Below are positions 36,130-40,171 of a stretch of DNA of 64,000 bases, one piece after another (within the stretch, counting starts at the first letter, position 1; each line of letters starts with the position of its first letter). The DNA is taken from IMG/VR virus record IMGVR_UViG_3300028888_000005, positions 1-64,000 of that record. One strand, given 5' to 3'. The position numbers were made by a program, and so were the translations under genes. Below the pieces are notes generated by a model. That model was not told the origin of the DNA, did not search any database, and was given only the letters and a program-made list of their open reading frames with translations. The DNA comes from a virus. Taxonomy: Duplodnaviria; Caudoviricetes.

Positions 36130-37287
36130 TTATTCACTAATACCCAATACGTAGTCAATTACTGTGCGGTTAGCTCTGTCTATCTTAGAGTGGTCAAATG
36201 TGATGTAAACATCAGTAACTGTATTCTGTGAGTGCCCTAAGGATGCGGATATGGTCTCTTTGGGGATATCAAGTGATGCAGCTATAGTGGCCCATGTGTA
36301 TCTGGCACAGTATGTAGTCAGCCCATGTACACCAATGCTAGTGCCGATAGGTTTAAGATGCCTGTTAATCATACACACCAGTGTGTGCGGGCTACGATAC
36401 TTCCTGACCCAGTCCATCACGCTCCAAAGTTGTTTAGCTTCCGGTTGTAGCTTGAACTCATAGTATTTACCGGTCTTCTGCCTGTTATACTTCACCTTTG
36501 TGGTAGAGGTGTCTGCCATGTGCCACAGGTCAGTCATGTTGATGCCTATCATATAGAACGAGAGCAGGAAACAGTCACGGGCATTCTTTTGCTCTCCATA
36601 TAAATCCAGGGAGATAAGCGTACGGAGCTGTTTCACTGATAGACTTCTTGGTTGATGTCTTTCGTGGTATATCTTGAACTTCCTGAACGGATAATTGAGT
36701 GTGATTCCGTCATCTATGGCTGCGTTGAACACAGCACGGAGATTACGGAAGTGTACAGACCTTGCATTAAGTGACGGACATCCATGTTCACTGAGCCACT
36801 TATCAAACTTACGTAACCAACCGGGGTTAATGGAGTCAAACAGCACAGTGCCCATAGCAGGATTGTACTGAATCAGTCTGCTAATGGTAGACTTATACAC
36901 GGACCTTGTGTTTGGTTTAGGTCTTGTTTCCATGAACTGCATCATGTAGGGAAGCACAAACTTAGTGCCTATATCTCTGTGCAGTTCAGTTATGATAATC
37001 TCCTTCAGTTGGGCGGCTTCTATATCCCTCAGTGCATACCCACCACCGAGCCTAAGCATCACATCCTGTGCAGACAGGAGCATACGATTAGCGTCTATGG
37101 TGAGCTTCCTTGCGTCAGGATGCCGTACAACAACCAGCCTGCGTTGGTCCCACTGATCTTTACGCAACTTGATACCAGTAGGAGCATAGCAGGTCTTACC
37201 GTTAGATGAGAATGACAACTGTAGTGAACGTAGGCTGTCCACGGTGTACCTAGTCCCGCGTGACAGGCATAATGTTATCTTGGCCAT
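36130..37287 (-). CDS. int: tyrosine integrase, Bacteroidetes type
   Basis: Arm-binding-like N-term (TGIKL..DQWD), core-binding region (RNLRAVFN), catalytic-region GINMTDL, RQKTG, YCARYTWA, LGH, TDVY; TAACTTTG box at 37315-37322. Confidence 0.9.
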   Translation of the reverse strand: MAKITLCLSRGTRYTVDSLRSLQLSFSSNGKTCYAPTGIKLRKDQWDQRRLVVVRHPDARKLTIDANRMLLSAQDVMLRLGGGYALRDIEAAQLKEIIITELHRDIGTKFVLPYMMQFMETRPKPNTRSVYKSTISRLIQYNPAMGTVLFDSINPGWLRKFDKWLSEHGCPSLNARSVHFRNLRAVFNAAIDDGITLNYPFRKFKIYHERHQPRSLSVKQLRTLISLDLYGEQKNARDCFLLSFYMIGINMTDLWHMADTSTTKVKYNRQKTGKYYEFKLQPEAKQLWSVMDWVRKYRSPHTLVCMINRHLKPIGTSIGVHGLTTYCARYTWATIAASLDIPKETISASLGHSQNTVTDVYITFDHSKIDRANRTVIDYVLGISE

Positions 37288-37396
37288 AGTGTGAAGTATT
37301 GAGGTTGAAGGCCGCAAAGTTAACAAAAATGTCTACAGTTTTTCTACCATAACAGTAAAAATATCTACGCATTTTGTTCAGTGAGCAGTATGTAGA

Positions 37397-37760: not shown

Positions 37761-38242
37761 GTGTGCAAAGATAGCATGAATATCCGTAAACACCAAATAT
37801 TTATCAGAAAATCATGCAGATTAGTGTAAACTTTTTGCTGTGCAGATAGGGTGCACAGGCACTCGTAGTAGACATTCTGCGCAGAAAAACACCCCCATAT
37901 AGTTCCATTTCTGTGCATATCCCCCACCCTTTTGTACGGAATTTCTTGTTGTGTACAGGTTCACAAAGTGCCCACTATTAGTACAGAATCATTACGTACA
38001 GTACATAATGTACATGCAATAATAGCGTACAATCTGTGCAGAAAATGTACGGTAATTTGTGCAGACGATTTGCAGAGAGTCTATTGTATATCGCGTATGA
38101 GAGAAAGGGTTAATTTGACAGGATTTATTATATGTCGCGTATACGGAAATAGTCCCCCCGTACCCCACCCTATTACAGCGCGAAGGGTAATGCCCCCCTC
38201 TTCGATGCTGTTATGTTCGGGGGCGCATAGGAGAACCAAGTT

Positions 38243-38500
38243 ATGCAGATCAACCTGCAAACCCCAATCAGTGCCCTGAAGGGCCAGTCATTCGTCCTGC
38301 TTCAGGACGGCAGTGTTAAACTCAACGGCACCAACGCCGACCTGTACATCAGTCCTGAGATCTTCGCGATGCTCAAGGCTGAGTTCGCCAAGGCTGAGGC
38401 CAAGCGCAACCTGGGCCAGTTCGTGGTCAACCGCAGGGTTAAGACCGTGAACGGCAAGGAGTTCACGAGGTATGAGGTGCGCTTAGGCATGACGCTCTGA
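38243..38500 (+). CDS. small early protein
   Basis: Strong codon bias; followed by a UUCG terminator. Confidence 0.75.
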   Translation: MQINLQTPISALKGQSFVLLQDGSVKLNGTNADLYISPEIFAMLKAEFAKAEAKRNLGQFVVNRRVKTVNGKEFTRYEVRLGMTL

Positions 38501-38512
38501 GTAAATCCCAAG

Positions 38513-38531
38513 AGCCCTTCGGGGCTTTTTT
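38513..38531 (+). terminator. intrinsic terminator
   Basis: AGCCC-TTCG-GGGCT followed by a T tract. Confidence 0.8.
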
Positions 38532-38673
38532 ATCAATCCCATCAGCCAGATATTGCTATCTTTACATTAACGCAAGGATAACAGCACTGGTTGGTGGGGC
38601 TTACAATTAGCTATTAACTGGCACAAAATAGGCACTGAATGTGTTGAAATGTGCATAAAACTGAAGCAAAACT

Positions 38674-38760
38674 ATGAATATTTACGTTCTTGCTGATGGT
38701 ACACTGAGCACTCCATGCACACCAGAGGATGCACAGCAGTACAACAATGAGTGGAAGTAA
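38674..38760 (+). CDS. 28-aa peptide (not in ORF track)
   Basis: MNIYVLADGTLSTPCTPEDAQQYNNEWK with A-rich leader. Confidence 0.35.
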   Translation: MNIYVLADGTLSTPCTPEDAQQYNNEWK

Positions 38761-38774
38761 AGTACACTCACCGC

Positions 38775-38872
38775 ACTAGATTGAATCGAGCCGTCTGCCT
38801 AAGCAGCCAAATGCTAATAATTTTTTCATGAGTGATTGGGGGATTGCGTTGTGAAACGTGGTCCCCATTTTA
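38775..38872 (+). ncRNA. candidate sRNA B (5' end uncertain)
   Basis: ATTTTTTCATGAGTGA (identical to sRNA A) followed by a GUGA-loop terminator at 38837-38871. Confidence 0.45.
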
Positions 38873-38883
38873 TTTATATAACC

Positions 38884-38946
38884 CGTCAGCCAAGGAGACG
38901 TAAACATACTACCTGATGAAACTTGGACGAAATAGAGATATCGTAG
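38884..38946 (+). ncRNA. hammerhead-type ribozyme candidate with pseudoknot
   Basis: CTAC-CTGATGA-aacttggac-GAAA-TA-GAGA-TA-TC-GTAG; upstream hairpin loop CCAAG is complementary to CTTGG. Confidence 0.65.
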
Positions 38947-39004
38947 AAATAATTCAAAAACAAGAAAGAGGTCATTGCGAGACCATAAACACTGCAAGCA
39001 CACT

Positions 39005-39331
39005 ATGAAGCATTTCACTATGGAGATGGAAGTGGAATACACTGACATGATTTCTGACCTTGTGATCAGTGATCACGTACGTCATTGTCCGAGCTTTGAT
39101 ACTGAAGGTATGATTAGTGCTTTCATTCAAAAATCATTAGGATGCTCCGGATGCGTAGCAACCAAAGAAGCAGAACGTTGGGTATCATCTGAGAATAGTT
39201 TCATCACTGTGAATGGCAAACTCTATTCAATAGAGTGGCAATACGAGGATGAAGACGCCATTAAGTATGAACTCTACGAGACATCAATCAAGTACAAGAT
39301 GGTTGAACTTGAAGAGGACATGCCGTTCTAA
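39005..39331 (+). CDS. small early protein
   Basis: Likely ATG 39005; acidic EEDMPF tail; terminator at 39344-39381. Confidence 0.65.
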   Translation: MKHFTMEMEVEYTDMISDLVISDHVRHCPSFDTEGMISAFIQKSLGCSGCVATKEAERWVSSENSFITVNGKLYSIEWQYEDEDAIKYELYETSIKYKMVELEEDMPF

Positions 39332-39436
39332 CCAGATACACAGCCATTGCGCAGGTATGATGGACCTGCGCTTTGGTTTTTCGTTATCCCATCACCTAAA
39401 CGTGGCGGCAACACGTTAAATACCGACAACAGAGTT

Positions 39437-39721
39437 ATGTTCGCATACTCAACTAACCCGAGTGTTAAGACACAGTTCAGCATCCAGAAGGAGCGTGAGG
39501 AGAAAGCTGCACGTATCGCTGATGAAGTAGCCATGCGCAGAGACATGCAGGCAGCTATTGCACGCTACTACAGTGACGATGAATACTCATCATGGGACCT
39601 TGATGCTGATGTTGAGGCAGCTGTGTTCCATCACCTACACATGAACAAAGGTGACAGAGCCAAACGCCTTCGTGGCCTTCAGAATGCAGTTGTACGTGCA
39701 TTCATGAAGAAGTACGCATAA
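39437..39721 (+). CDS. small early protein
   Basis: Likely ATG 39437 (MFAYSTNP). Confidence 0.7.
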   Translation: MFAYSTNPSVKTQFSIQKEREEKAARIADEVAMRRDMQAAIARYYSDDEYSSWDLDADVEAAVFHHLHMNKGDRAKRLRGLQNAVVRAFMKKYA

Positions 39722-39726
39722 TAGAT

Positions 39727-39876
39727 ATGAACCGTTCCACACTACAGACAGTGGCATTGCTGATTGCGGCAGTGTCACTGCTGTTTCTGCTAAAAGGCAT
39801 TCTGTTTCCCATAGTCCTCCCATTAGCAGGACTGTGGTTAGCCTACAAACTGTTCCGTTATTCACAGCGGAAATGA
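39727..39876 (+). CDS. 49-aa hydrophobic membrane peptide (not in ORF track)
   Basis: MNRSTLQTVALLIAAVSLLFLLKGILFPIVLPLAGLWLAYKLFRYSQRK. Confidence 0.55.
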   Translation: MNRSTLQTVALLIAAVSLLFLLKGILFPIVLPLAGLWLAYKLFRYSQRK

Positions 39877-39899
39877 ACATACACTTACGTGTCTTACCT

Positions 39900-39939
39900 C
39901 AGTGGGATAGTCTATGGTGGAGATTGTCCCACTGTTTTT
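39900..39939 (+). terminator. intrinsic terminator
   Basis: CAGTGGGATAGTCT/AGATTGTCCCACTG followed by TTTTT. Confidence 0.8.
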
Positions 39940-39982
39940 ATGCATTCCATCAACTACAATAATTTAAAACATAGAAAGAACA

Positions 39983-40171
39983 ATGAGGAATTACAAATTA
40001 CTTGGCAAGCTTGAGTCTTATGCATCAAGCTGCCGTGATGCGTTAAACACAGCAAGCAACAAGCTGGCTAATCTACAAAACAAGGTAATGGTTAAGCGCA
40101 TTGAGATGCTTGACAAGGAGCTGGAAGAGCTGCGTGGTAAAGTATCACTACAAATCACTGAAAGCAAATGA
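39983..40171 (+). CDS. small coiled-coil protein
   Basis: ATGA overlap with the next gene. Confidence 0.6.
   Translation: MRNYKLLGKLESYASSCRDALNTASNKLANLQNKVMVKRIEMLDKELEELRGKVSLQITESK

Follow-up and report, generated by a model that had tools for sequence, protein, structure and literature searches.

A putative pseudoknot (RAGATH-1) hammerhead ribozyme with an altered last stem II pair between two small genes of a crAss-like rumen phage

The closest described relatives of the element analysed here are the pseudoknot hammerhead ribozymes, whose other name, RAGATH-1, reportedly goes back to Weinberg et al. in 2017. The class was found by the Breaker laboratory (Weinberg et al. 2015, as cited in PMC11300833), and its crystal structure combines the secondary structure and connectivity of the pistol ribozyme with the chemistry of the hammerhead (Zhan et al. 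2024, Nat Commun, PMC11300833). The crystallised pseudoknot hammerhead cleaves at 16 per min, with G12 as general base and the 2'-OH of G8 as general acid (PMC11300833); the corresponding nucleotides in our locus are G38929 and G38918. The pistol ribozyme (RF02679) arranges and connects its helices and pseudoknot in the same way as our locus and has a similar global fold (PMC11300833), but its core loop is CAGA instead of CUGAUGA, and its general acid is a metal-bound water, whereas the pseudoknot hammerhead uses the 2'-OH of G8. With the RAGATH-1 hammerheads the locus has much more in common: the loop of a 5' hairpin pairs with the stem II loop, an A-rich linker follows, the CUGAUGA and GAAA strands, the A15.1-U16.1 pair and C17 are all present, the topology is of type I, and the element resides in phage DNA. 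The crystallised construct (PMC11300833) can be matched block for block to the Rfam consensus and to our locus, with the same linker, core and loop sequences. The differences from the RAGATH-1 members are an A10.1·C11.1 instead of the G10.1-C11.1 pair, a stem III of 3 bp with a GAGA loop versus ~6-9 bp in most members, and a score ~7 bits under the Rfam cut-off, whereas the closely related contigs L017/L019, which carry G10.1, are above it.

Hammerheads of prophages and phages that have loop-loop or pseudoknot contacts (Perreault et al. 2011, PMC3088659) lie, like the present one, between phage genes of small size or between short blocks of genes, and the role proposed for those of prophages is to convert long phage transcripts to gene-length RNAs. 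Weak stems and an occasional mismatch at 10.1-11.1, both seen in our locus, occur in active natural examples, and a natural hammerhead with a stem II of 1 bp is also on record (PMC3088659). In these ribozymes the pseudoknot joins loop I or the 3' tail with stem II and the stem II helix remains, whereas our locus lacks stem II and takes the pairing partner from an extra hairpin. Its stem III is very short, as in the dimer-cleaving hammerheads of Penelope-like elements (Lünse et al., as cited in PMC5737381). In our locus, however, stem III is a closed, non-palindromic GNRA hairpin and nothing in it suggests a dimer; a dimer mechanism was rejected for the locus since stem III is not palindromic.

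The locus lies in a 64,000-nt stretch of DNA (positions 1 to 64,000 of the IMG/VR record IMGVR_UViG_3300028888_000005), which is called the window in this article. In a permissive Infernal scan the element was aligned over the full length of the RF03152 (RAGATH-1 hammerhead) model, with an E-value of 1.4e-7 in the scan of 251 nt and of 3.7e-5 when the 64-kb window was compared with 4227 Rfam families. Its score of 49.1 bits does not reach the gathering score of RF03152 (56.3 bits), therefore the default Rfam scan of the window gave no match. In the alignment A10.1·C11.1 and the outermost position of stem I are flagged as unpaired, and 12 stem III positions of the model are deleted. No other ribozyme family, the remaining models of the hammerhead clan included, matched in 38760-39010 at E-values up to 10. 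Judged from its sequence, 38883-38947 is a copy of the catalogued pseudoknot (RAGATH-1) hammerhead class, of type I with an open stem I, and the sole unusual point of this copy is a one-base variant that breaks the last remaining stem II pair.

A preliminary description had presented the element as a hammerhead variant with pistol topology, in which a pseudoknot replaces stem II. Its coordinates, read directly from the sequence, were all correct, and the RF03152 alignment supports the hammerhead core, the reduction of stem II to one position pair and its substitution by a pseudoknot to the loop of the upstream hairpin. The predicted cut after C38942 agrees with the model alignment as well, where 'GUC' is placed before the stem I 3' strand. 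The structure was properly recognised, but it is not new: the fold, the connectivity, the resemblance to pistol and the chemistry of RF03152 hammerheads have already been published (PMC11300833), and the preliminary description rediscovered a published class. The comparison with Rfam hammerhead and pistol models that it proposed yielded RF03152 and no pistol match.

Table 1. Features of the predicted ribozyme and of its surroundings (positions in the window)
Feature	Position	Strand	Details
Whole pseudoknot (RAGATH-1) hammerhead	38883..38947	+	RF03152 positions 1-77, 49.1 bits
Extra hairpin (helix IV / P0)	38884..38900	+	CGUC 38884-87 / GACG 38897-900, 9-nt loop AGCCAAGGA
Pseudoknot 5' strand CCAAG	38890..38894	+	Helix IV loop; perfect complement of 38922-26
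A-rich linker UAAACAUA (DNA TAAACATA)	38901..38908	+	Sequence, alignment A1
Stem I 5' strand CUAC	38909..38912	+	Pairs with GUAG 38943-46, 4 bp
Core C3 U4 G5 A6 U7 G8 A9 (CUGAUGA)	38913..38919	+	RF03152 alignment
Stem II remnant A10.1 (38920) / C11.1 (38928)	38920..38928	+	Mismatch; non-pair in Infernal; loop ACUUGGA
Pseudoknot 3' strand CUUGG	38922..38926	+	Inside the loop of the stem II remnant
G12 A13 A14 A15.1 (GAAA)	38929..38932	+	RF03152 alignment
Stem III AUA 38932-34 / UAU 38939-41	38932..38941	+	3 A-U pairs including A15.1-U16.1
GNRA loop GAGA of stem III	38935-38	+	Sequence
Predicted scissile bond C17 (38942) / G1.1 (38943)	38942..38943	+	Model alignment; AUC triplet ends at C38942
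Terminator-like hairpin and U-rich run	38839..38876	+	12 bp, GUGA loop; stem 38839-38866 plus ATTTTATTTA
Leader hairpin GGUC-AUUGCGA-GACC	38970..38984	+	4 bp, 7-nt loop; in the 62-nt leader left after predicted cleavage
Downstream gene ORF 39005, 108 aa	39005..39331	+	ATG also called in independent assemblies; 62 nt after the predicted cut
Hairpin/T-run and WYCCRTCA units	38513-38544, 38839-38888, 39349-39394, 39900-39952		Second copy overlaps first ribozyme bases

The hammerhead core is complete, since besides the CUGAUGA and GAAA strands the A38932-U38941 pair and C38942 (H17, not G) are also present (Table 1). The pseudoknot between the 5' hairpin loop and the stem II loop, for which at least 4 bp are expected, comprises five Watson-Crick pairs, and the linker UAAACAUA keeps the three A columns and the U column that are conserved in the family. 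In the alignment of the family (A1, see below) these linker columns (A22, A23, A25, U26) are invariant or nearly so, and in the crystal structure the linker sits in the minor groove of helix IV (PMC11300833). The G10.1-C11.1 pair, which is highly conserved though not strictly defining, is absent, with A38920·C38928 in its place, and no stem II of the canonical type I/III hammerheads (a helix of at least 2 bp) can be drawn between 38920 and 38928. Stems I and III conform to the type I topology and both are at the short end of the family range. An A38908·A38947 mismatch adjoins the 4-bp stem I, and in L017/L019/L020 an A-U pair is found as a fifth pair of this stem. According to a crude parser, stem I most frequently has 4 bp in the family sample, a length that is also typical of crAss-like carriers, and stem III of the window is the shortest well-formed stem III of the sample.

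Members of the family were collected from IMG/VR with two search patterns. One left free the two central pseudoknot positions of each strand; the other left free all five pseudoknot positions per strand, base 10.1 and both strands of the hairpin, and together they gave 56 loci. RF03152 scores of 57-85 bits are frequent among them, and several loci with a complete core reach only 43-53 bits, so that a score below the cut-off is common in real variants. Five Watson-Crick pseudoknot pairs were found in 63 of 65 matches, and the family uses 10 different, perfectly complementary pseudoknot pentamer pairs, with 99.6% of the cells paired. In alignment A1, consisting of 49 distinct family sequences, 98.2% of the cells of the hairpin and the pseudoknot are paired, and the covariation score is 0.473 versus 0.143 in shuffles; none of 500 shuffles reached the observed value and the signal collapsed when the register was slid. 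Three of the four pairs in the helix IV stem change on both sides across the family. Across the family there is strong covariation in both the extra hairpin and the pseudoknot of 5 bp. The CUGAUGA core is also invariant in A1, though it was imposed by the search pattern. The preliminary description had proposed conservation and covariation among homologues as a check: the ribozyme block is conserved in the contigs of sister lineages and covariation is found across the family, but the close relatives, where stem substitutions occur at the edges only, display conservation and no covariation.

The orthologous intergenic regions of the sister lineages were taken from contigs encoding the six-member cluster of the downstream protein and from one metagenome contig. 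Their identity to the window is ~99.97% in L022-L024 (the same strain), ~91% in L018/L075, ~87% in L020 and ~79% in L017/L019. The segment 38821-38946, comprising the terminator and the ribozyme, is 94-100% identical among the sister lineages and the downstream ORF is 92-98% identical among the same lineages; the leader 38947-39004 contains a 13-nt indel and is aligned at only 37-39% between the two clades. Conservation ends exactly at 38946, which is the last base of stem I. For a 108-nt stretch with at most one change at the ~20% background divergence of L017 we calculated a binomial probability of ~1e-9, and this pattern of substitution indicates that the terminator-ribozyme block is under purifying selection. 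Within the match L017/L019 differ from the window only at 10.1 and at 38947 (A to U). The RF03152 scores are 58.6 bits in L017/L019, 56.1 in L018 and 51.6 in L020, and since the orthologues L017/L019 pass 56.3 bits, the element of the window is orthologous to members by Rfam's own rule. Both L020 and L024 start at window position 38821, which was interpreted as an assembly break at a polymorphic site and not as the end of a transcript.

The A...C opposition that the preliminary description had noted where G-C is usual is indeed there, but it is not the norm of the family. G stands at 10.1 in L017, L018, L019 and L075, hence we class the copy of the window as an orthologous family member that carries a variant allele; the window strain and L020 carry A10.1, and outside the window lineage all of the 60 matches have G. 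Based on the ORF and the leader, the window and L018/L075 make up one clade, L017/L019 and L020 the other. The polymorphism at 10.1 cuts across these clades, which implies recombination or recurrent mutation. A lineage-specific metagenome scan added one more G10.1 contig.

The energetics of folding were calculated with ViennaRNA, where neither the pseudoknot nor tertiary contacts are scored. The nested part of the active fold amounts to -0.8 kcal/mol, compared with -7.0 kcal/mol for a competing fold in which CGUCAG pairs with CUGAUG; the competing UCAG/CUGA pairing is open to all family members. The pseudoknot duplex, taken separately and omitting tertiary contacts, contributes approximately -4.3 kcal/mol. 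Stem III alone gave no stable prediction in ViennaRNA, and single-sequence folding, which models neither pseudoknots nor tertiary contacts, did not recover the hammerhead fold (z = 0.41).

The record that harbours the element is a virus genome of 100,589 bp with 127-bp terminal repeats. It belongs to a crAss-like rumen phage, and the ribozyme locus is between two small early genes in a rightward region of small genes. The capsid protein shares 63-69% identity with its counterparts in crAss001, cr85_1 and other Steigviridae, and the terminase and the portal match PHROG families. A tyrosine integrase (Phage_int_SAM_5) was located at 36130-37326, and an integrase is unusual for a crAss-like phage. 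A 4593-aa open frame of the same genome (67733-81514, + strand), outside the window, has no PHROG match and probably corresponds to the giant virion protein region that crAss-like phages typically have. ARAGORN found no complete tRNA in the window, and the rest of the phage genome gave no other Rfam match, the ribozyme being the only one detectable with Rfam. When 38000-40000 was compared with GenBank phages by megablast no match was obtained, and a search for RF03152 in the five closest named relatives (crAss001, cr85_1, cr106_1, cr112_1 and bajarodcaudo virus 1) was negative. However, a crAss-type capsid homologue (29-52% identity) was detected in all of the 10 near-complete ribozyme carriers of ~95-104 kb tested in IMG/VR. 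Our literature search found no paper that links crAss-like phages with hammerheads. The locus adds nothing to the ribozyme class as such, but it adds to the evidence for recurrent pseudoknot hammerheads in crAss-like phages, and, with its constant placement between a terminator and a conserved leader hairpin, it is a well-defined site at which the purpose of phage hammerheads can be studied.

The terminator-like hairpin and its U-run end 7 nt 5' of the ribozyme. Three G·U pairs of this hairpin can form in the + sense RNA only, which supports the + strand, and the hairpin is invariant or compensated in the sister lineages (one G·U is changed to A-U in L018). Since the terminator is directly upstream, the ribozyme is present only in transcripts that read through it or start in another way. 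Of 53 distinct family loci, 23 have a similar hairpin with a T-run no more than 25 nt before the ribozyme, versus 8.1% of random positions. In several lineages of the near-complete crAss-like carriers the distance from a GUGA-capped hairpin and T-run to the ribozyme is 6-15 nt. In other crAss-like lineages (L027, L029, L034, L035, L036, L040, L041, L044, L052, L053, L058 and L061) a long, mostly GUGA-capped hairpin with a T-run ends 6-10 nt before the pseudoknot hammerhead, in a layout identical to that of the window. On the 3' side, the leader hairpin has a paralogue at 39401-39415 ahead of the next gene, and further copies are at ~1446-1460 in L017 and ~141-155 in L020. The stems display compensatory changes, GGUC/GACC in the window, GGUG/CACC in L017, AGUG/CACU in L020 and CGUG/CACG at 39401-15; the loop is AUUGCGA in cassette 2 of the window and GCGGCAA in the others. 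These hairpins, which are followed by an AUAAAYACUG-like sequence, stand ~20 nt before the start codons of two neighbouring small genes. ORF 39005 and the neighbouring small genes have no Pfam or PHROG match, the ORF 39005 protein belongs to only one cluster of six members at ≥90% identity, and neither ORF 39005 nor the helicase revealed relatives in IMG/VR when used as queries. A promoter scan with the sigma-70 consensus, which is not applicable to a Bacteroidota host or to a phage polymerase, gave results at chance level. The motif WYCCRTCA follows each of four successive hairpin/T-runs at a short, similar distance (4 sites versus 1.0 expected), and it could be a start or processing signal of the early cassettes.

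The best explanation, to which we assign a probability of about 0.6, is that the element is a co-transcriptionally self-cleaving pseudoknot hammerhead, which would cut the message of ORF 39005 free and fix its 5' end. The RNA polymerase would have to pass the hairpin and U-run at 38839-38876 so that the ribozyme could be transcribed, and helix IV might be the first part to fold. Its CCAAG loop could then pair with CUUGG of the stem II remnant, giving a helix that would stand in for stem II, and stem I (4 bp) together with the short hairpin of stem III would close the three-way junction. By analogy with the crystallised ribozyme, G12 is expected to activate the 2'-OH of C17 and the 2'-OH of G8 to protonate the leaving group, and the chain would break between C38942 and G38943. 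The upstream product would keep the terminator hairpin and the ribozyme and would terminate in a 2',3'-cyclic phosphate; the downstream product might be released easily, as stem I has only 4 bp. From the hammerhead chemistry and the layout, the mRNA of ORF 39005 would carry a 5'-OH end at G38943, 62 nt before the AUG and 27 nt before the leader hairpin. This arrangement suggests that the element is transcribed, that the RNA is cleaved in vivo and that the cut serves the message of ORF 39005; the role may be the separation or trimming of early messages, in line with what Perreault et al. proposed for hammerheads of prophages.

With regard to the identity of the element, the succession of its parts (hairpin, A-rich linker, helix, pseudoknot, helix, cut site) is that of pistol and might point to a pistol ribozyme or to a new class intermediate between pistol and hammerhead; this idea can practically be discarded, since RF02679 gave no match in 38760-39010 at E-values up to 10, even though the same tool detected it with 63.3 bits in L007, the core is CUGAUGA...GAAA, and the common topology is already described for a hammerhead class with hammerhead chemistry. 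It is also very improbable that the likeness to a ribozyme is incidental and the block is kept as a terminator, a protein-binding DNA site or a coding frame. A terminator does adjoin the site, and open frames overlap it on both strands (ORF 38776-39048 on the - strand and a 30-codon ORF at 38916-39008), but both frames enter 38947-39004, where the indel and the ~39% alignment between the clades are not those of conserved genes, and conservation stops exactly at the boundary of stem I, which rules out the overlapping frames as its cause; furthermore the covariance-model match is of full length (E 3.7e-5) and orthologues are above the Rfam cut-off. A heavier objection concerns the allele itself, which may be crippled or dead: with the loss of the stem II pair, in addition to very weak stems I and III, the rate of cleavage would be biologically irrelevant, and conservation would be explained by a recent mutation or by the adjoining terminator. 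The window supplies the only non-paired 10.1-11.1 cell among the 49 sequences of A1, the sisters L017, L018, L019 and L075 have G, a scan of JGI metagenomes for family members with a non-G base at 10.1 returned no match, and the nested fold is only marginally stable. The 10.1-11.1 pair is moreover the most conserved pair of hammerheads besides A15.1-U16.1, but active natural hammerheads with U·U at this place have been reported (Perreault et al. 2011, PMC3088659). Against a crippled allele, A10.1 is present in at least six assemblies and in two diverged backgrounds (ORF 92% identical, different leaders), and neither of the A-bearing lineages has a second change in the 65 nt of the ribozyme, which argues mildly that the A allele may be tolerated. 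The pseudoknot has five Watson-Crick pairs here versus four in the very fast crystallised construct (PMC11300833). We consider the loss of function unlikely, if clearly the strongest of the objections, and we are inclined to predict that the A10.1 allele does cleave; our guess is that the A10.1·C11.1 combination makes it slower but still active. An A·C opposition can pair as a protonated wobble, and A retains the N7 that G10.1 presents to a metal ion. The G10.1 and A10.1·C11.1 forms constitute a natural, otherwise identical pair of alleles for probing how far the pseudoknot can substitute for the last pair of stem II.

The setting of the ribozyme might also be different: an early transcript could begin directly behind the hairpin/U-run, near WYCCRTCA, with the ribozyme at its very 5' end, and then cleavage would remove a triphosphate-bearing leader of 60 nt and would not separate two genes. 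The four hairpin/T-runs each followed by the motif, the second copy of which overlaps the start of the ribozyme, speak for this arrangement, as does the leader behind the L017-type ribozyme, which is paralogous to the leader behind the bare motif in the next cassette; additionally, the early promoters of the virion RNA polymerase of crAss-like phages are not known (bioRxiv 10.1101/2020.03.07.982082). However, no WYCCRTCA was detected upstream of pseudoknot hammerheads from other crAss-like lineages, CCGTCAGCC is in any case the conserved 5' sequence of the family itself, and the G·U pairs demonstrate that the hairpins function at the RNA level, like terminators. A start at this point seems rather improbable to us, and the cutting free of the ORF 39005 message from a longer transcript is still preferred. 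A broader, speculative proposal, to which we would give only a small chance, is that the GNRA-capped hairpin, the U-run and the pseudoknot hammerhead constitute a conserved boundary module of early cassettes in several deeply diverged crAss-like lineages, which here is swappable with the bare WYCCRTCA heading the sibling cassettes. If this were true, the ribozyme and WYCCRTCA would both determine where early mRNAs begin, a short distance before a common leader hairpin that covaries, and the segregating G10.1/A10.1 would set the amount of ORF 39005 message released.

Other observations were made on the family sample in passing. The family loci are often found beside hatchet, pistol, twister-like or type III hammerhead ribozymes or tRNA arrays. 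A subgroup (L033, L037, L039, L046, L055, L056, L059, L060, L062, L065 and L067) has the full 5' half, i.e. hairpin, pseudoknot, core and GAAA; after GAAA comes AUAUAUUCC..., with barely any stem III, and then a GUGA-capped terminator, and the scanned members of this subgroup score 43-53 bits for RF03152. Pairs of pseudoknot hammerheads, in tandem or a few hundred nt apart, were seen in L049 (2366-2537), L046 (4775-5000) and L014 (9820-10203). In L028, a crAss-like record whose capsid protein is 52% identical to that of the phage of the window, a twister-P1-like match of 57.5 bits (cut-off 67.2) is at 1158-1346 on the - strand, ~50 nt from a RAGATH-1 hammerhead. Another crAss-like record, L051, contains at 1313-1716 a group I intron-like match of 41.5 bits, below the cut-off, ~600 nt 3' of its pseudoknot hammerhead.
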